Positions 1-25,545 of a stretch of 48,462 nt of DNA are shown here, one piece after another. A program made the translations under genes and the position numbers. The DNA lies in contig CT868043.1 of assembly GCA_000165425.1 (NCBI GenBank), forward strand, positions 186,001 through 234,462. Direction: 5' to 3'. Under the pieces are notes generated by a model. The model worked only from the letters and a program-made list of their open reading frames with translations, searched no databases and was not told the DNA's origin. This DNA is from Paramecium tetraurelia (Eukaryota). Position 1 is the first letter of the stretch. Each line of letters begins with the position of its first letter.

Positions 1-133
1 ACAACTTACTTTACTTGGGACTCCTGATTTTCAATACATAAAGGACGATAGATGACATAGACAATTTATATCGTTAATTAAATATAGATCAAAGTTTAAA
101 AAATGAATATATGACTTGAATATGAAATTAATG

Positions 134-950
134 TCATTTCTTCTTTTTTCCATGTGTAGTATTAAAAGATCTAATTTTAGTGGAATCACCATCTTGAGTT
201 GAATATTCTTAAACATTGGATAACTTTTTCTTCTTGTTTTAGTTTTAATCAACACATGCAAGACAAATGAACTTGATCTTAGAAATATTTTTAAGTTCTT
301 TGTCACTTTTTCCACTGCAAGTATAATGAATCCAATTATTACAGAATTCACATAGAATATAGTCTTCTTTAGGATCGTATAATCTTTTGCAATTGCAATA
401 TATTAACCATTCATTTATAGGAGGGTTAAACTCTTATAATTTTGTGTTGTATTCTGCACGTGTATAGAAATGGTCATCGTCTAGTACGATTGTCCCTTCG
501 ACAAACATATCAATTGGATCGACTTTTATTTTTTAAACAAATGTAGTAGATAGAAACCATTAAGTAATGTCAGTGAGAAATAGGTCTTTAGATGTGCATT
601 CTTGTAGCTTTTAGAATTCATCATCACGATTATCAATGTCTTCAGGTTTGAAATATATTCGACCTTTTATGAATCCCGCCCATTCATTTTGAATCTTTAT
701 TTTTATCATTTCAGTGATTTGAACGTAGTAGGACACTCTGCCAATTGTAAATTAAGCATTTTCAGTCGGCGCCAATTTTTATTTTTAACGTGTTAGCATG
801 TACTCACATTCAACTATGAGATCAGTATTTCTGAAGTAGGAGATGAAGGTTTCAAACTATTTGATTTAATCTCTAATTGATTACATCTTGCTCATCAAGG
901 CTTTTCATGATCGCTGCTTGATCTTCTTTTGAAAATTTAACAGATTTCAT
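134..950 (-). CDS. BAH-PHD chromatin reader protein (EBS/SHL-like), ~262 aa, one 28-nt intron (857-884)
   Basis: Code 6 translation: MKSVKFSKED...GRVSYYVQITEM...KGRIYFKPED...DLFLTD...DDHFYTRAEYNTKLQEFNP (BAH), immediately followed by IYCNCKRLYDPKEDYILCEFCNNWIHYTC...FICLAC (C4HC3 PHD finger). It ends HGKKKK-TGA and the spliced length is divisible by 3. Confidence 0.85.
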
Positions 951-1009
951 TTCTGTTTTCTCTTATAATATACAAATATAATTATGATTACAAAAATATA
1001 GGATTATGA

Positions 1010-2574
1010 TCATTTCCTGCTATTCTAATTGCTTGAGGGAACATAAGCAGATGATCTTCTAGCTGCAGCCACTCTTTAAGCTGGAGTTCTCTCCTCCTCA
1101 AAATGAGAATTCCTTGATTTAGCCACAATTGTCGTTTTCTCCTTTCCGGAATTTCGTACATCCTGTTTCTCTTCAAGAATTGGCATCAATTTGATCATCT
1201 TTGGATTTAACACACTCTATCTCTTACTAAAATTATTGTTATATCATATTACGATCTATCGATTTCTGGATGTAAAGGCTACATTCTTTTAGGTGGACTA
1301 CTCTTAGGTCTCTGAAAATCTCTGAACACAGGTATGCCATCCTCTCCATATTCCACTTCCATTATTTTTGATTCAAGAATTTCTCTGCAAGATGGTCGAT
1401 CTTATGGATTGTGAGATAGCATCTTTTGTAAGAGAACAGTTAATGAATGACTTGAATTGAGGTCTTTTTCTAATTGAGCAAAGTCAATCTTCATTTCCAT
1501 ATTGGTCTGCTTCACTGGCTATGCGAAGAGAGGATGACCAATTAAAAGATAATAGAGGATGCAACCTAATGAAAAGACATCGCATTTCTCATCATATGTA
1601 GCATTGTTATCGTTTTCTGCCAAAAACACTTCCGGTGCCATGTACCCTGGAGTGCCACAATATTGATACACAGCCATTCTTTATTGTTTTGGAGTAGCAA
1701 TCCCAAAATCGCTGATCATAACATTATTACCAACATTGATGAGTCCATACCTTTTAAGGGGGATGAAATCTCTAAAAAGAATATTATCTGGTTTTAAATC
1801 TCTGTGTATTACACCCTAATCATGAATATATTGTACACCTTCAAGGATTTATCTAAATATCACTTTTGCACTCAGGAATGGAACTGGGGCATTGAAGACT
1901 TTCAAAGCATATTCAAGTGTGCCTCCCCTTGCCAAATCCAATATTAAATAGATTTATGCTTTATTTTCAAATACTTCGTGTAAATTAATCAGATTTGGAT
2001 GATTGAGTTTACGCATCACAACAATTTCATTTTCCACCTAATCCCTTCCTTTAGGATCCTGGAACACTTGCTTCTTATAGAATGCTTTGGCAGCATAAGA
2101 TTATTGATCATTTTTTCCCTTGGCTTCATAGACCGATGCAAATGATCCTTTACCAATTAATTTGCTTATTTCATAATGTGCTTGATAATCTAACATATGC
2201 AACTTGTTTCTGAGGTGATCAAACCAATACATAGTTTAGAAATTGAAGTTATAAAATTCAACAGAATCACAATCATCTCTTTCGAGAGTAAATTTGTAAA
2301 TTTGTGTATGGAATTCATCGCCTTTCATTTGTTTGTGTATTTATTTCGAAGTTTATTCGGCTTTAACTGAGAATCTCACTTCACAATTGAGTTTAAGTAT
2401 ATACATTTTAGTGTTCTTATTACTTATTTTGTATATGAAATCATCACTGCATAACAGTAAAGTCACTTCTTTGTGATTACTCATCTTGAAAAATTGGGTT
2501 TTGAATAGGATTTTATCCTATGGAATGGGTGCATCATATTTTAAAAAAAGCTTAGTTAATTGTTGTTATAACAT
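1010..2574 (-). CDS. Ser/Thr protein kinase (CAMK-like) with N-terminal PH-like extension, ~512 aa, intron 1227-1252
   Basis: Motifs [33 protein letters not shown] and KCDVFSLG in one frame under code 6; spliced length 1539 nt. Confidence 0.93.
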
Positions 2575-2599
2575 ATTAATATAAATTATTCAAGTCGAG

Positions 2600-5449
2600 T
2601 CAAAGTGATTCTTTAGCCTACAATTAGACCTTTTGTAATTTGTAAACTTGTCTATTCAAAGCTGATTTTTAAATCAAGAAACCTAATTTTGCATAAAATC
2701 TTAATAAATGAGAACATTATTCACCACATTACCTTTAATGATTTTATCTCAACTTCGATAAATATTCATTGAATTCTTCTTACTTTAATTCTTCTCCATC
2801 ACCTTTATTGAAGAACTTTTTAATTTAATTGACTGCCTCTTAAAATTATGGGTCATTCTTGGCTTTTCCTTATTAGAGTTTCTTAAATGCTTCTTTGTCT
2901 AATTCATTGAAATCAGGTTTATCAATAATAATCTGAGAGTTCTACTTCTTCTATTAAAATTACTCTTAAGTTTGTGTGAATAATGGTATTTAACCTTCAG
3001 TCTGAATTCCAATATCTATTACAACAACAGATTACAACTCTGCTCGTGGTAATCTTTTCTATGATTGTCTAATTTATCGTAATTCCGGATTAAGTCCATC
3101 ATTCTCAACCACTTCAAATTCTTGAATAATCTCTTCACCTAGAGCATTGATTCTCTTTTTAATTAGAATCCTTTGACCAAATTCATCAACTCTATCTTCT
3201 TCGACTATCTTCTCATTATTCTCATCAAAATACGACCTCTAATGAATATGTCTTTTAGCACCATTAGACAGATTAATAGTTTACTATTGATATTCAACAG
3301 AATTCTTAGTAAAATTGGTTGTCTGAATTTTCATGTTATTTTCATGATCAACCATATGGATAGACTCTTAGCCATGTTCATCAACTAACACCTTTTACTC
3401 AATAGTCTTTCCATTCTTGGTAATTCTTTCAATTCTTTCATTAGGTCCAACTTAAATGATGACTTGCTTGCCTATTTCCAAACCATCCAAAGTGATAACA
3501 GTTTCAATAGTTTATTTACCATCTTCATTTTTAAAAGTCTTTTACATTTACACTTCCTTAGTTCTCATATTCATTTTTCTTTGACATTCAACTTATTATC
3601 CCTTTTCATTAATATATGTGTATTTGGTCACTTGAATTTCATCTCCATATTCATCATTAAACACAGCTTCAGTTTTGTCCTTGTATTGCTTCAATACAAT
3701 ACTAGATCTTCGTCCATTTGGATGAATAGTGATTTCATCTATTTTCTTACTCTAATCATCACTATTCACATATATCTTTCTCATAATTTTGAGTCCTCCT
3801 TCTTTCACTTCTTCCTCATGTTAATACATTTCCCCATTGTCATCTTTCAAAACCTACTTAGTAATAGATTCCACAACTTCATGCTGACTATTTCTTTTGA
3901 TAATCTTTAATGTATCCTAACCATATTTTTATTTCTCCAATATTCTCATTACACTACCATTCTCCGTTGTCCTCTCCTCTATAATTGATTCCTTATGATC
4001 TAATCTCTTTGCTGACAATCTAATCCCTACCGATTCTCCCTTGTCCTCATATAACAATTATCCATTCTGCTAATATACTTTATACTAATGTTTTCCATCT
4101 GCCTATTGAGCTATCCACTCCTCTTCCAATTGCTTATTCCCATCAACTGATTTCACTCTAACAATCTTTTTGGCCTATGCAGTATTAACTTCATATTAAG
4201 TAACATCATCTGATTTCTAAACTACCTTAACCTTCTAATTTCCATACTTAGCCACAATCCATTCATTTTCATCTATAGTTTGTTCCTTTGATTTTATCTA
4301 CTTAATCAATTCTTCTTATTCCAACATAATTTCTTATTGGGGATCACTTTATCTGGCCCTACTTTTGATTACTTCTCCACTCTCTACATCTACCACAACC
4401 TCCTCTATCACTTATTAACCATTAATTTCCTTAACTCTAAATTCTATTCTCTTATTCTATAGTAATTCTGGATCAAATTCAGGATCATATTCAATAATCC
4501 CTGCCTCGATTGCCTTTCTCTTGTGTTCCTACAATTACACTTATTTAATGATATCACCCAAAGGAGGAAGATTCTCTTTCAATTCCTTCGATTTAAATTC
4601 CTTAGTTGCTTCAATCTGTGTTATTTTTTGTTATAGAACCTAAGTCACATGTTACAAAGATTATTAGGCAAAATATTTAACTTTTAAGGCAGGAGTATCT
4701 TGATTCACATCTGAGAATATTTCTGTTTATTTTTAACATGCCTTAATTCCTTCTTCAATAATTGATTTTACATTATCATATTGAGAATGCAAATAAAAAT
4801 AATTGACAAAATGATTGCGCAATTCTGATATGGCTTACAGTGAGAATTTAGATGGAAGAGAATCAGTTTAAGCTTCGGCATCAAAAGTTTCTGGTTTACT
4901 TATTGTGATTTCATTGGTATTTTAATTGAGTAACAATTCCTCCAACTCAACTTAACATGCTTTCGATGTCTTATATACAAATTATTCGTCATCATCTGAT
5001 AATTTTCTAATCTTTCTTTCCAGTGATACATGTTCCATTTTAGAATTCAATTCAACTCCATCTCTTTTCAATTAATCCAAGTACTTCTTGTAGTGTGCTT
5101 ATTTAGGATCTTACTTGGATGGCATCTTACGATACTGATCACAAAGTGAACAATTGATCAACCTTAAAGATCTTCTTCTTTAGGCTCGTTATTGAAATAG
5201 TTTTCTGGTCACTTCATCAAAATCATTGTCTTTGAGACACTTGATCAATTGGGTAATCAATTAAAACACTTTTATAGTTTAACCTCTGAACTCCTCTCTA
5301 ATGTAAGGTACTATTGATTAGATCACTATCCAAGATATAGTATGAACAGAATGAAACACATGTTATAATTTGTCTTGCTCTATTTTTAGAACATCATCAC
5401 TTAGTTTCTTAAGAATCACATCCAATTTGTGAGCCAATTCTTTTTCCAT
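2600..5449 (-). CDS. Hypothetical ~949 aa E/K/Q-rich coiled-coil protein with a C-terminal HxxxCGxxCxH motif
   Basis: ATG at 5449 (MEKELAHKLDVIL...). The 2850-nt span is divisible by 3 and ends ...HQRQCGEQCSHLLRFYAKLGF...AKESL-TGA. The interior was spot-checked, not fully translated. Confidence 0.75.
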
Positions 5450-18764: not shown

Positions 18765-21700
18765 TCAATTCTGAAATCTACTCAAATTTTACATTGCTAT
18801 CTGTAAATTATTCTAATCCTCAAATAATAGAGCTAGTTAATCTTATTTGATAATTATATATAGGTGCAAAATTTCTGCTTCAGAGTAAAATAATTAGATT
18901 TCTGAGTATTCCAAAAGATTTTAAATGCTGTTTTAATAAATAAAGAATATTTCCTTTTCGCATATAAAAAATATTTTATTTTATCCCTTCTAAAGAACCT
19001 CATGTGAACTAATTATATGAAATTTTTTATTAGAGATTTATTTGTTACAATCACATTTCTTCGCTTCCTTTAATTTTTATTGATGATAAGCTTGTTATTT
19101 ATTGAAAACCTTATACAATTTGGTTGATTCGTATATTGGTCTTTTTATTCTTATCTCGTTCCAGTTAGTTAATTTTACCAGATTGATCATAAGTCTATTG
19201 GTCAAATATTAACTTACCACATTAAACAAAAACTTTGAATCTCCAATAACATATTACATAAGTATTCTATTAACAAGATTAGAAGGCGTGCTTTAAAAGT
19301 TCTCTTTAACAAAATGTTATCGTTCTAATTAATAGTTATCTTTCAAATAAGAAATTTTCATTTTCATTGGGCACAATATTAACTTTCTCACATATATATT
19401 TATCTATTTCAATTAATTTTTTTAGACTACCTTTTCAACTTTTTTTTTGTTAAGCAATTTATAAATGTAATTACCTTTCTCTTTCATAGTGCGCTAAGAA
19501 TTTAAATATTCATAAAATTAGCCTTGTATTTATTCTTATTTTTTTAGTAATACTTTATCCATGCAAAATTGAAAATTTCCAAGATTTATTTTAACTAAAT
19601 CCAAATAATAATAAGATGAAGCTGCTGCGCTTAATTTAAATTCAAACTCCATAGAATTTTATAGTTATGAAACCTCAGAAAATAAAATAGTTTTTGATTC
19701 AGACATTTTCTTAGATTATGCATCTATTTACATCTTTTACAATTTAAAATTTATCTATTTTTAATTAAGTTCATTCGATGAATAAATCATAATGATATTA
19801 TCAAAGAAACAAATAAGTAGTTCTTTATAATCATTTTTTAGATTTTCAATATAAGAAATTGAACAGCCGACTATTTAAGTCTTAAGATCAAAATGATATT
19901 TAATTTTCTCTTACTATATTTATTGTTATATTTAACTTTACCATGCTTGTTAAAAGTCCTTAACAATAAATTATTTTTGATTGCCTACTTTAACAACAGC
20001 ATAATCGAACTTTTATCCATTAATCTCAAGATTTCCAGCTAAGCCAACCTAATCCAACTTTAAAGCAAATTAAATTGGATTATTCCAACTCCTAGTTTGA
20101 ATTTTTAGATTAACTGGATAAATAAATTCTTTGTCAGTTTAATGAGTTTTTGCTAATGGATATCGATCTCCACAAGATAGGGTTTCATTGTCACTTTTTA
20201 ATAATATTTATAAGGATTTCGATTCATTAATTACCATATATGGATAATCTTTTTGATTTTGAATATCATCTATAATCAAAAAATTTTCATTATTTTACTC
20301 CAAAATAGTAATTTTTAAAAACCTTCTTATCTATAAATTCACTGACCTAACAAGGACAACAAATTGTTATTGAACCATAATGCTGAATCTTGCTGTTTAT
20401 AAAACTATATCATCAAAATTCAGTTTTACAGAACATTCATAAGAGAAATCAGGATTGTTTAAATGTTCCTGATTCTAAAATTATAGAGGTTTTTTAATAT
20501 GGGATTCCAACAAGATTATTTAATCTTCAAAACAAATATAAATTGGTGAAGCCAATTTATTGAAAGCAACGTATTTGTAAAATAGTTAAAAGAATGGAAC
20601 TGTGTAATCTCCATATTGTATAAATTATTTTTCTATTTGAATTGGAAGAAATTAAGTAGAATGATTTACTTTCTTTTTGACATGCATAGTTTCTAATTTA
20701 ATGATATCTGACAAAACTACTGGCTATGATTTTAAATTGGTATTTCTTTCTTCAAAAACCAGATTTTACTTTTCTTAGATGTTTTCAAGCACAATCAATT
20801 AAAGAGAAGTATTATACTTTTACCCTCCCAAAAGCTCTAAGCTCTTTTCAGTACCTTGATAAAATATTAGATCTAAATCTGTGTTGTTAATTAAGTAAGG
20901 TGAATTAAATTGAATAGCAAGTCTATGTCTTCCATAGTTGTCTACAGTTGGTTTGATTAATAAAATTACATTTAATTATCTTCTATCTACGTTTAATTAC
21001 CATTTTTCATCTTCCAACAAAACTTACCTCCCTTTCATTAATTCATCAAATGTATATTGTATTGATTGATAATATCGGTCAATTTTGAAACTAAATAGGT
21101 AATCTTTTGAAGGATTGATTTCGCAATCCTCAATTATTTCTTTTTACATGATATTGAAATTCAGAAATTGTTTGATTTCAGGACAGTGCTTATCAATTGA
21201 AATGTTAAAAGGCGTTTGATTGATGAATTCTACCACTGGAGTAATTGAAATTATTGATCTCTCCATCATTATAGGATCTTGTAATGACTTCAATCTAAAG
21301 TACTTATTTTTCAGATTCAATATTTCTGAATTTCCTTTTTTTATTTTTTAAGAAATATCCTAATAATTATAAGATTCAGAGGCAAGTTTATCCTAAACTA
21401 AGCACAACCAACCTTTTGACATTTGATTTGGTATGATGTAAATATTATCGTACTTTTGAAATTTCTGAAATTATTCTTACTTTAAACCTTTAGTTAAATT
21501 GATAATTTCTTAATTCGAGATTTTAATTTATAAATCAATAGGGCTCAAATTTATTAATAAAATAGAGCTAGTAATAATTGTCTTTGAAGAATTCATAAAT
21601 TCATCTACAATTGTTTCAATAATTAATGAGAAACCTTGCTCTTTTATTATTTTCTTTTTCTGGACTTAAAAAGACCAATTGTCTATCTTTATAGTAGAAT

Positions 21701-24700
21701 TCACTCCAAACAACTCTAATTAAAATATTCCTTTGCATCTTATGATTTATTTCTAATTATTTGACAATTCTATAGGTTCTATATCTGGACCTCTTGCAAT
21801 AATCAACAAACCACTAAAATTTTATATTTCATAAGTTTCGTAAGTGAGTATTTAGTTATTACTTTAATTAATTGATTCATAAATTTGTTTCAGCTCTTTG
21901 GCTTTACGTTATTTTATTAACTTCTTGAATTTAAATAAATTCTAAAGGAATTCAGTTGATATGTTGATATGGCAAGTATCTTGTATATAAAAGTCTAAAT
22001 GCATCGTTGGCTATTAGCTTTAAATATTTAGATTGAGATCTAATAAAATAGGTTCTATGATAGGTTCCCATGCTAGTTTAGTTGAATGATAATTGACAGC
22101 TTCAAATTGATTTCTAATATGAAAATTTATATCATTTAGATTTAGTTCTAATTTCCAAAGTGGTTGGGTAAAAGTGAATCCAACTATTGGCAATGATTAA
22201 CTGAATAAATCATCTATGAATACAGCTTGAATTTAGGATTCAACTCCAGTTGTCAATGAATAGGTCTTATCTCTATATTAAATGAGATAACTTGCTAAGT
22301 CATGAGAGGCATAGAATTCAGTGATTTGAGTTGATAATTTTTAAATCTCTTTAATCAAATAGCTTATATCTCTGGTACCAAATGCAAATTTCAACTGATT
22401 TGTCTTACAATTCATATAGTGTTTTATCACATCTTTTTGAAAGAGGACTCTCCACCCAAAATCTATATTGCAAGAAGACAATAGTACTCTTTTAGTGCTC
22501 CTTTTCTTCAATTTGCTTGTCTATAATGTATATTATTAGGCAAATATTGCTTAGGCATCATAGAGTTTGATATCTATGGTCATCTCAGATTGATTATCAA
22601 CGACTAGAATTCCTTTAGGAATACCTTTCACTTATAAGCAATCTTCATCTAAACTATCCTACATAAACATAATAGTAATGTATTCCTATTTAAATGAAAT
22701 AGATTTTAGTTCACTTTATTTATACAGAACATATTTCTTATTAATTTCAACCTTCAATTAGTTACAAATAATCTAAAGATCAGGATACTAAGTCAAATAG
22801 GAATTAATAATGAATTTAGTAATATTCCAATCCTTTTTTAACTCGATTGGGTATTACTCCAGGATGGACCCTATTGTTTTAGCCCTATAGTTCAGAATAC
22901 AGTAATAAAGAGTAAGTTTAAGAATAGAATTTCCATCTAAAATCTAGAATAAAAATAAAATAATAAATTACTTGATGTTCAATTATTGTTGCACCTTTGT
23001 CACTCTTAATCTCCAGAAGTGTCTAATTTTCAAAATTATTCATTTCTTAATAAAAATCTCTAGTAATTGCAAAGTTCTAAAATGACAGTGTTACTTTATT
23101 ATTAAATTGATTTCCAAAACTAGTCAAATTTAAATAAGTTAGTTGAATATTGATAAATGGTTTTTATTCATTTGCTAACACTACAGCATGTAAACTATTT
23201 AATTTTATTTAAAAAAATGATTAGAATTCTTACTATTATTTTTAATTCTGCACATTATTTACAGGTTTATTACCATCCTATTCCAAAATATTTTATACAT
23301 AGTAATCATCATTCCGAGAGACTTGACATTTATTCACAACTATTTGTCTGTCCTCCTCATTTGCAAAAGCCAAAGTTATAACTTAATTATTTGTAGTTAA
23401 CTCAAGACTTAATTGCTATTTAATTTTGGTTTATTTATATGATATATTTTATAAATCTATCTTCATGATTTTCTCGTCTTTCTCAAATTCATACAAATTA
23501 ATGAATTTGCCCTGAAAAGTCATTCTACATTTAATTTAATCTTTGACATAGTCATTACTAAACATACAATACTTTTGTTAATTCTCTTCATTTCCTCTAA
23601 GTTGATTTTTCATTTCTTTTAATGGTTATTGAAAATGAGTTCCATAAAATTAATAAAAATATTTATAAATAGTAGGATTGATCTTAAAATTTAAGTCTCC
23701 TAATTCTATTTCAGTACTGATCTAGTTATCTTACACTTTAATTACTAATCCTACATCACAATTTGTTATCTTGACAAAATCTCTGGACATTATGATGCTG
23801 TTGAAACAGTATTATTGATGTATAAAGTCAATAGATGAATTGAACTTTTCAGAAAAGCCAAGTATTGTATCAAATATTTTAACTTCGTAAACTGATTGAT
23901 TTTGAGTTTTATAATTAAAATCAATGGATCCTGGACTAAAAAGAAAGGTTTCCTTTCCATTAGTTGAGAGTAAATAGACTTTTTCTAATTTAATTTAAAT
24001 ATCCTATTCTTTTTTATCGCTTACTATTTCTTTTATTTGTTGCTTAGCTTTCCTTGTTAATTTCGGTAATTGACTTTCTGAAACAACAAAAAAATAAAAT
24101 AAATCATAGTATTTTTCAAAATCTTATTGATTAAAAATGATTTGGAATGGACATGTCTATATAAAGAGGCTTTCTTTCTTTTCATCATTTGTGTGATGCA
24201 ATTCTAGACTGTATTTTTCTTCAAAATTTTTATTTTTGGATACTAAATAATTGATTTGATCTTAGAATTACAAGAGAACATCTCCTTACTTGACTGTGAA
24301 ATCCAATTGCAATTAATTAGTTTTATTGATCAGCAAATTGACATTTTTGATATCGAAGATCAATTTATTCAATTAATTCCTGTAATTAGATGATAACCCT
24401 ATTTAGCATGAGTTTACAACCAATTCAAATTTGAGTTAAAGACTTTTTAGATCAAAATCGGGATCTTAATCTATTTCATCAAGTATATTAACAATCTTTT
24501 CTCCCATTTTTTTATCATTTTTGACCATCCCTCCAAACCATCCCAATTTCTTTTTTCTCAATTAAACTATCTCGTCTCCCTTATCGTATTTCAAAATTTC
24601 AAATTGTATTTGTTTTAGATCATTCATTGATTAAGTTTACACTAGTTAACACAATCTCTCATATTCTTAACATTCAGTTGACTACTCTAATAGAGAGATG

Positions 24701-25545
24701 GTTTTCAAAATATTTTTAATCTCCCCTTTGACATTTTGATCATCTTCTTTATTTGAACTCCTCTCTACTTATTTGTTTTATCTCTATGTAAATTGTTATA
24801 CATAATCAGAGAATAGATAAATTGAATTACACTGAGTTTTAGAGCAATTAAAAATTAGCTAATCGAATACTATGCCTAATTAGAAGGATAGATTTTCTGA
24901 GTCTTGTTCAGCCACATCTTCAAGAGTAGCATATGCATTTAATTAAGTAATTGTATCTTGCCAAAATAGTTGTAGGTTATTGATTTCAATGTTCCTTAAT
25001 TTGGCTTGATTGGGATTCAGAGAGGATTTACAGGTTAAATGTTATAATTTGACACCAAAGGAGTTCTCAGTGCAATACTTATCTATGAAGGTGATGTTTA
25101 AACTATTTAATTCAACTTCGACGTTTTGGATCAAATTAAATACAAACTTCTTCTTTGGGTCTTATTGTTATTTATCTTGTGCTGCCATTCCTTTTAGGAG
25201 ATTTTCGACTAAGGAATTTCGAAATTTATCAAGAATTTATAATTTAATAGCACTTTCCATAACAAAATTTCCATATAAATTTAGTATTTCTATTACAATA
25301 TTGAGAGAATCAATTTTGATAGAAGATGATTTCCCTAAAGTAATAATCACATTATTGATCATGCTCTCTTTAATTATAAGTGGCAAATTGAATTTTTTAA
25401 AAATGGAAGGCTTGAATTACATGTTGTTTAATTGAATTTATCCCTTAGTCAATTGAGTCGTAATCTGCTCCTTGGAAATGTTATCAAAATACTCATACAC
25501 ATAAGTATTGATATAATCTGTGAGATAGGACTTCAAAAATTACAT
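18765..25545 (-). CDS. VPS13: VPS13-family bridge-like lipid transfer protein, ~2250 aa, at least one intron (22944-22971)
   Basis: Chorein_N start MQFLKSYLTDYINTYVYEYFDNISKEQITTQLTKGQIQLNNMQFKPSIFKKFNLPLIIKE and LIQNVEVELNSLNITFID. It also has NYHSTKLAWEPIIEP and VAB/SHR-BD-like repeats (IQFNSPYLINNTDLDL, ITPVVEFINQTPF). The spliced length is divisible by 3; the interior was not fully translated. Confidence 0.8.

Follow-up and report, generated by a model that had tools for sequence, protein, structure and literature searches.

The window analysed here is a stretch of 48,462 nucleotides of Paramecium tetraurelia DNA (contig CT868043.1, positions 186,001 to 234,462 of the forward strand), and the element in question is a gene on its minus strand, at 134..950, encoding a protein in which a BAH domain is followed directly by a PHD finger. 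Cassettes of this type are found in the plant proteins SHL (SHORT LIFE) and EBS, and in the fungal protein EPR-1. The gene is a new, uncharacterised member of the known EBS/SHL/EPR-1 family of BAH-PHD proteins with an informative pattern of losses: the aromatic cage of the PHD finger is retained and the BAH domain, judged by its residues, is non-canonical at the site for trimethylated lysine 27 of histone H3 (H3K27me3). All features of the gene given below lie on the minus strand.

The BAH-PHD gene and its transcript

The coding sequence is organized in two exons. Exon 1 (885..950) starts with the ATG at 950 and encodes the first 22 amino acids (MKSVKFSKEDQAAIMKSLDEQD), which begin a Paramecium-specific N-terminal helical extension; a P. 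tetraurelia protein of 262 amino acids present in the database starts with the same residues. Exon 1 is separated by an intron of 28 nt (857..884, GTA...TAG) from exon 2 (137..856), which comprises 240 codons read in the ciliate code, ten of them TAA codons for glutamine, and is closed by a TGA stop codon at 134..136. The product of 262 amino acids (22 + 240) corresponds to the annotated 'unnamed protein product' of P. tetraurelia, equal in length and 100% identical over the 240 amino acids searched.

Public sequencing runs were aligned to positions 1-3000 of the window. A transcript contig from run X4 (813 nt, depth 115.7) spans 133-973 minus exactly the 28 bases of the intron and ends at 133, next to the stop codon. 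Since it has no other gap, the gene contains no further introns and its 5′ untranslated region amounts to at least 23 nt (951..973). The splice joint comes from the X4 contig only and was not seen directly in raw RNA reads, which are 58 nt long and cover the intron at a depth of 0-1. In three oligo-dT RNA libraries the gene was covered with the first mate on the plus strand only, as expected for minus-strand RNA in most stranded libraries.

Expression was estimated as the mean depth over bins 201-900 for the BAH-PHD gene and over bins 1101-1900 for the neighbouring kinase gene. The respective values were 13.7 and 10.2 in run X19 (ratio about 1.3), 3.2 and 20.3 in run X20 (about 0.16) and 1.8 and 13.6 in run X21 (about 0.13), and the contig depth of 115.7 in X4 compares with about 33 for the kinase gene. 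The BAH-PHD gene was thus covered to a depth comparable to or above that of the kinase gene in two of the four runs. According to the ratios in X19, X20 and X21 its level differs some eight- to ten-fold among the libraries of a single study, although these runs represent coded conditions with small read counts and the ratios carry no developmental timing.

The locus is a real, expressed and spliced P. tetraurelia gene. A preliminary description of the stretch, made from its letters alone, had placed the gene at 134..950 and quoted several motifs from it. The limits proved exact, as the reading frame, the 28-nt intron, the database protein and the X4 contig all agree, and the motifs are present as quoted: GRIYFKPED in place of RWYYRPEE in the BAH half, and IYC, LYDP and NWIH in the PHD finger.

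Domain architecture and family assignment

The PHD finger is recognized by Pfam (PF00628, E 1.2e-5, 25.7 bits against a cut-off of 24), whereas the Pfam BAH profile (PF01426) gave no match to the protein even at E<=10. The same profile also misses the Paramecium paralogs P0007 and P0008, and with its failure the assignment of the BAH domain relies on homologs, comparison of profiles and fold. In a phmmer search of the PDB, poplar SHL (5ZNP, E 2.1e-14) and Arabidopsis EBS (5Z8L, E 4.3e-10; 5Z8N, E 9.3e-10) were matched over residues 63-217 of the 240-amino-acid query, a range that takes in the latter half of the BAH domain and continues through the PHD finger; these are the only three of the 47 PDB matches listed that extend into the BAH half, the other 44 covering the PHD finger alone. 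A profile made of four Paramecium orthologs found the same proteins in the PDB by hmmsearch (SHL 2.9e-15, EBS 7.2e-13). An exhaustive HMMER search yielded 290 proteins at E<=1e-3. Among 21 homologs spanning both halves, hand-picked from these matches, 19 carry both the Pfam BAH and PHD domains at E<=0.01, the BAH domain exceeding the cut-off in 16 of the 21, and the two with no Pfam BAH domain are Paramecium paralogs. When the Paramecium clade (8 sequences) was compared with 16 canonical members by hhalign, the two profiles aligned at 99.05% probability with E 2.2e-18 over 155 columns (residues 63-232).

The AlphaFold2 model, based on an alignment of 48 sequences, has a mean predicted local distance difference test score (pLDDT) of 89.4 and a predicted template modelling score of 0.80. 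The seven best matches of the model in a Foldseek search of the PDB are SHL and EBS cassettes (E 5e-14 to 5e-12, template modelling score of the target 0.71-0.81, 181-195 columns), and stand-alone BAH domains come next, those of TNRC18 with H3K9me3 and of BAHCC1 with H3K27me3. As the PDB searches, profiles, hhalign, model and Foldseek agree, the N-terminal half is a diverged BAH domain, and the protein as a whole a genuine BAH-PHD cassette of the EBS/SHL type. The architecture outlined in the preliminary description, a BAH domain running straight into a PHD finger and then into a basic tail, homologous to plant EBS and SHL, is therefore confirmed; only its check against domain profiles came out divided, the PHD finger passing the Pfam cut-off and the BAH domain being found in the PDB searches and by hhalign, not by PF01426.

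The Pfam miss was considered as an argument against a BAH domain and set aside, since profile, homolog and fold evidence concur. It is likewise the point that would speak for the absence of any real feature, i.e. for a frame open by chance or an erroneous annotation, and it is confronted there with the spliced X4 contig, the orthologs, the database protein, the confident model and the fold matches. The spliced transcript contig, together with E values between 1e-14 and 1e-18 for SHL and EBS, has already refuted this alternative, and its probability is negligible.

The N-terminal extension continues from exon 1 into the start of exon 2 (residues 23-38, 809..856) and is modelled as two helices (residues 8-19 and 23-28, pLDDT 82-95); it contains a motif, D/N-F-E/D-x-F-I-S, common to this gene and to the second of the Paramecium paralog groups described below. 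The diverged BAH domain (about residues 39-166, 425..808) was delimited by phmmer, hmmsearch, hhalign and Foldseek, and the PHD finger (residues 176-223, 254..397) by Pfam PF00628, by its invariance among orthologs and by alignment with SHL and BPTF. The remainder (137..253) is modelled as a C-terminal helix (residues 221-240) with a lysine-rich NKKKK, followed by a disordered, conserved tail that ends with GKKKK and in which the pLDDT falls below 50 at residues 251-259. The C-terminal lysine runs are probably nuclear localisation signals.

Within the disordered tail (residues 243-262, 137-196, QDGDSTKIRSFNTTHGKKKK) 11 of the 20 positions are invariant in four species, including S-T-K-x-R-S. 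The PHD finger of EBS is subject to autoinhibition by the C-terminal region of that protein. The tail of the Paramecium protein may act in nuclear localisation, serve as a site of phosphorylation, or fold back like the autoinhibitory tail of EBS.

Plant SHL (5ZNP, 5ZNR) and EBS (5Z8L, 5Z8N) are the best matches in the PDB by both sequence and fold, they are of similar size, and their N-terminal BAH domain is packed against the PHD finger in the same manner. In contrast to them, the Paramecium protein has the extra two-helix N-terminal extension of about 38 amino acids and a C-terminal helix and basic tail of its own. Neurospora EPR-1 and Fusarium BP1, fungal BAH-PHD readers of H3K27 methylation, belong to the same family. 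EPR-1 has been presented as an ortholog of EBS/SHL, with homologs widely distributed in eukaryotes (Wiles et al., 10.1101/868117, in excerpt). The text of that paper, Fig. 6a aside, contains no mention of ciliates, Paramecium, Tetrahymena or the stem alveolat-.

Pocket residues and the Paramecium paralogs

The PHD finger has zinc ligands of the C4HC3 type, of which C176, C178, C191, C194 and H199 occur in 48/48 sequences of the family alignment and C202, C220 and C223 in at least 90%; the 48 sequences were drawn from matches to a Paramecium query, so residue fractions in this sample are illustrative only. Its cage is formed by Y175, Y182 and W197, plus Y188. The best stand-alone PHD match is that of BPTF (2FUI, 2F6J; E 2.7e-6), a protein in which, unlike here, the finger is paired with a bromodomain and not with a BAH domain. 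Residues Y175, Y182, Y188 and W197 align with BPTF chain positions 10, 17, 23 and 32, which reportedly form its H3K4me3 cage (Li et al. 2006). The PHD cage of poplar SHL consists of Tyr141, Tyr148 and Trp163 (PMC6013494), and the identical Tyr/Tyr/Trp set typical of H3K4me3-reading PHD fingers is found at the aligned positions Y175, Y182 and W197, each invariant in the other three orthologs. All zinc ligands and cage aromatics, Y188 included, are identical in four Paramecium species, and the linker with the PHD finger is the best conserved part of the protein (38 of 58 positions invariant across the four orthologs vs 60 of 128 in the BAH domain). Retention of the PHD aromatics had been claimed before and is borne out. 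By its cage residues the finger looks fit for reading H3K4 methylation.

The BAH cage, as defined in PMC13068663 and PMC6013494 (both in excerpt), is built in poplar SHL of Tyr41, Trp63 and Tyr65, with His88 and Asp90 holding H3S28 and stacking on H3P30; each of the substitutions Y41A, W63A, Y65A, H88A and D90A abolishes binding of H3K27me3 (PMC6013494, in excerpt). The counterpart of SHL Y41 is Y65 with the adjoining Y66, the former replaced by Val in P. primaurelia and the latter invariant, and SHL Y65 corresponds to F91, which is Tyr in the other three orthologs. The remaining three of the five individually required residues are replaced. Trp63, the back wall of the cage, has become I89 (656-658), so that the aromatic cage of the H3K27me3-reading BAH domains of SHL, EBS, AIPP3, BAHCC1 and BAHD1 is incomplete in all four orthologs, where the residue is Ile throughout; loss of this Trp had been noticed in the preliminary description. 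The His and Asp of such domains are also gone: H88 is I119 (566-568; L, L and Q in the orthologs) and D90 is Q121 (560-562, a TAA codon; R, Q and K). In the family alignment the Trp column contains W in 35 sequences, F/Y in 5 and I/L in 8, the last being exactly the sequences of the Paramecium clade, and the His and the Asp of the pair are each found in 23 of 48. EPR-1 keeps the BAH aromatics and has no PHD cage aromatics (10.1101/868117, in excerpt); compared with EPR-1 as described there, the Paramecium protein is its mirror image.

The strand at 554-574 (residues 117-123) reads T-D-I-T-Q-W-F where SHL has S-D-H-x-D-x-Q, and T117, T120, W122 and F123 are invariant in all eight sequences of Paramecium groups 1-3.

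Judging by database names, there are at least four groups of BAH-PHD paralogs in Paramecium: group 1 with the window gene, group 2 with GSPATT00030109001 (313 amino acids, 35.5% identical to it), group 3 with a P. primaurelia protein of 228 amino acids and group 4 with GSPATT00001858001 (P0175, 246 amino acids). Single BAH-PHD proteins of Stentor and Blepharisma were also among the database matches. A tabulation of the named ciliate BAH-PHD sequences shows the His absent from all of them and the Asp present only in Paramecium group 4.

A tree with EBS and SHL, proposed earlier as a check, was built by maximum likelihood from 48 hand-picked rows (Paramecium groups, named taxa and environmental matches), with weak deep branches and an arbitrary root. 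Groups 1-3 form one clade on a long stem (support 99/97) and group 4 joins the clade of plant, algal and choanoflagellate EBS/SHL proteins at 98/83. On this tree the window gene is a member of a divergent, faster-evolving clade found in Paramecium only, separate from that of plant SHL and EBS. Its product is only about 27% identical to a plant SHL-like protein. GSPATT00001858001, the BAH-PHD protein of group 4 from the same species, retains W63, Y65 and D90, with Y41→Cys and H88→Gln, and has a PHD cage reduced by His and Leu at the two Tyr positions. It is also much better conserved between P. tetraurelia and P. primaurelia (90.7% identity vs 75.8% for the window gene). Because it keeps the Trp and groups with the canonical clade, GSPATT00001858001 appears a better candidate for a reader of Polycomb marks than the window gene. 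Together with its orthologs P0063, P0176 and P0177 it shares more than 90% identity across four aurelia species, and P0063 (P. pentaurelia, in the same 90% cluster as P0175) matches both Pfam BAH and Pfam PHD.

A further alternative for the window gene is that of a drifting duplicate with little or no histone reading, either a protein-protein adaptor only or a gene on its way to loss. It is 88.5% identical to its ortholog in P. octaurelia, 75.8% to that in P. primaurelia and 58.9% to that in P. sonneborni, a faster evolution than in group 4, which together with the long stem would be consistent with drift. The PHD cages of the sister groups are degraded, with E/F and E/C at two Tyr positions in groups 2 and 3 and Leu for Trp in group 3, and word-based searches, which need shared words of five residues and are weak evidence, showed no close second P. 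tetraurelia copy and no further named ciliates, their matches being confined to Paramecium orthologs and some environmental proteins without names. On the other hand, the frame is open, the X4 contig is spliced, the structure model is confident and the depth reached or exceeded that of the kinase gene in two of four runs. Every zinc ligand and PHD cage residue is invariant in the orthologs of four species, and given this invariance and the clear expression we consider a drifting adaptor or decaying duplicate quite improbable.

Probable function

The reading we favour, with moderate confidence, is that of a nuclear reader of H3K4me2/3 acting through its PHD finger, with the BAH domain serving as a platform and not reading H3K27me3 in the canonical way. 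The protein would enter a nucleus by means of its lysine-rich C-terminus and its intact PHD cage would dock on H3K4me2/3. The BAH domain would keep its fold without the canonical H3K27me3 site and act as a rigid platform that engages the H3 tail, the nucleosome or a partner protein non-specifically.

Several points weigh against this proposal. Reading of H3K4 methylation is deduced from the cage residues alone, and nuclear localisation from the lysine runs alone. The BAH pocket retains two cage aromatics of three (Y65/Y66, and F91, which is Tyr in the other three species) and I89 is strictly conserved, hence the half-aromatic pocket could still hold a methyl-lysine. The SHL data concern Ala mutants and a W63L/Y65A double mutant and include no single Trp→Ile exchange (PMC6013494, in excerpt). 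The clade-wide invariance of T117..T120.W122-F123, on the strand replacing SDHxDxQ, argues for a constraint on that surface. The histone itself differs as well: Paramecium H3 around K27 reads TKAARK(me3)TAP, with Thr and not Ser after K27 (PMC6586856), and all Paramecium H3 variants are devoid of Ser28 (PMC8997361). With a sequence ARK(me3)TAP the Pro30 is kept and the residue gripped by the SHL His/Asp pair is changed, and for want of Ser28 in its target the pocket may be re-tooled rather than dead. The incomplete His/Asp pair of the named ciliate proteins tabulated and Thr28 of Paramecium H3 may represent co-variation of reader and histone.

A re-tooled pocket would make the protein a bivalent reader, with the BAH domain recognizing methyl marks deposited by Ezl1 on Ser28-less H3 and the PHD finger simultaneously reading H3K4me3. 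Without the Pro30-reading His the BAH domain might not discriminate K27me3 from K9me3, and the protein would act at 'plastic' genes co-marked with K4me3 and K27me3, or in the developing macronucleus. Apart from the kept aromatics, the invariant I89 and the altered histone, the proposal gains from the position of T117, T120, W122 and F123 where SHL contacts the peptide (PMC6013494, in excerpt), and from the fold matches ranked directly after SHL and EBS, which are BAH domains with H3K9me3 (TNRC18) and H3K27me3 (BAHCC1). It also gains from the facts that Ezl1 deposits both H3K9me3 and H3K27me3, marks which label transposable elements (PMC6586856), and that in the vegetative macronucleus H3K27me3 co-occurs with H3K4me3, the main chromatin predictor of expression in Paramecium, at plastic genes (PMC8997361). 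Replacement of three of the five essential SHL residues speaks against it, as does the drift of positions 119 (I/L/L/Q) and 121 (Q/R/Q/K) in close species, a pattern that gives no sign of a specific contact newly made there. The BAH domain is moreover less conserved than the PHD finger, GSPATT00001858001 is the better conserved protein that keeps W63, Y65 and D90 and groups with canonical EBS/SHL, and Thr28 retains the hydroxyl group, so that the change in the histone did not by itself require the His/Asp pair to be lost. We regard a bivalent reader as the main alternative, but a less likely one. The more specific claim, that the Paramecium-only clade rebuilt its BAH pocket in step with Ser28-less H3 and reads Ezl1-made H3K27me3/H3K9me3 together with H3K4me3, is doubtful; if true, the protein would be a reader of the plastic-gene chromatin co-marked with K4me3 and K27me3, or of chromatin destined for elimination.

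With an H3K4me2/3 reader as the preferred reading, the proposal of the preliminary description that the protein links active and Polycomb marks is not supported as stated: the Trp and the His/Asp pair are gone, the positions of the pair vary, and a paralog that keeps the Trp is better placed for that role. A Polycomb or developmental role of the window gene is conceivable, but it is not supported.

The neighbouring genes, encoding a Ser/Thr kinase, a VPS13-like protein and coiled-coil proteins, give no functional hint for the BAH-PHD gene. The Ser/Thr protein kinase gene (1010-2574, minus strand; Pkinase E 8e-65) shows loose read ends at 1226 and 1253 that indicate an intron of 26 nt (about 1227-1252); with this intron its coding region probably runs to about 1010, which leaves only about 37-60 nt before the start of the BAH-PHD transcript. 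One X4 contig omits 136 bases within the kinase gene (1650-1787, ends AG..TA), a joint that does not appear in the raw RNA reads and is probably an assembly or paralog artefact. Base differences at 2909, 2933 and 2945 (G>A, C>T, C>T), seen in some reads and one contig, may come from a near-identical paralog or an allele. Further along, two long open reading frames of 921 and 1301 amino acids lie side by side (18765-25545, minus strand). The upstream frame matches VPS13_N weakly (E 5e-13, under the cut-off), and the pair probably belongs to a single large gene for a VPS13-like lipid-transfer protein that is interrupted by introns.

Neither a publication on a Paramecium BAH-PHD protein nor a Paramecium reader of H3K4me3 or H3K27me3 emerged from literature searches, the identifier of the window gene itself not being searchable; a search with the identifiers of paralog group 2 also found nothing. 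DevPF1 and DevPF2 are Paramecium PHD-finger proteins, development-specific and with a role in genome rearrangement, but they are different genes with PF13831 and PF13832 and without a BAH domain, and the word 'BAH' does not occur in the paper describing them (PMC11385659, in excerpt).

The ancient EBS/SHL/EPR-1 family is thus represented in Paramecium by at least four groups of paralogs that differ in which cage residues they have kept and which they have lost, and these groups lend themselves to dissecting what each half of the cassette contributes. In practical terms, the window gene is a candidate reader of H3K4 methylation, and GSPATT00001858001 would be the first choice for the reading of Polycomb marks.

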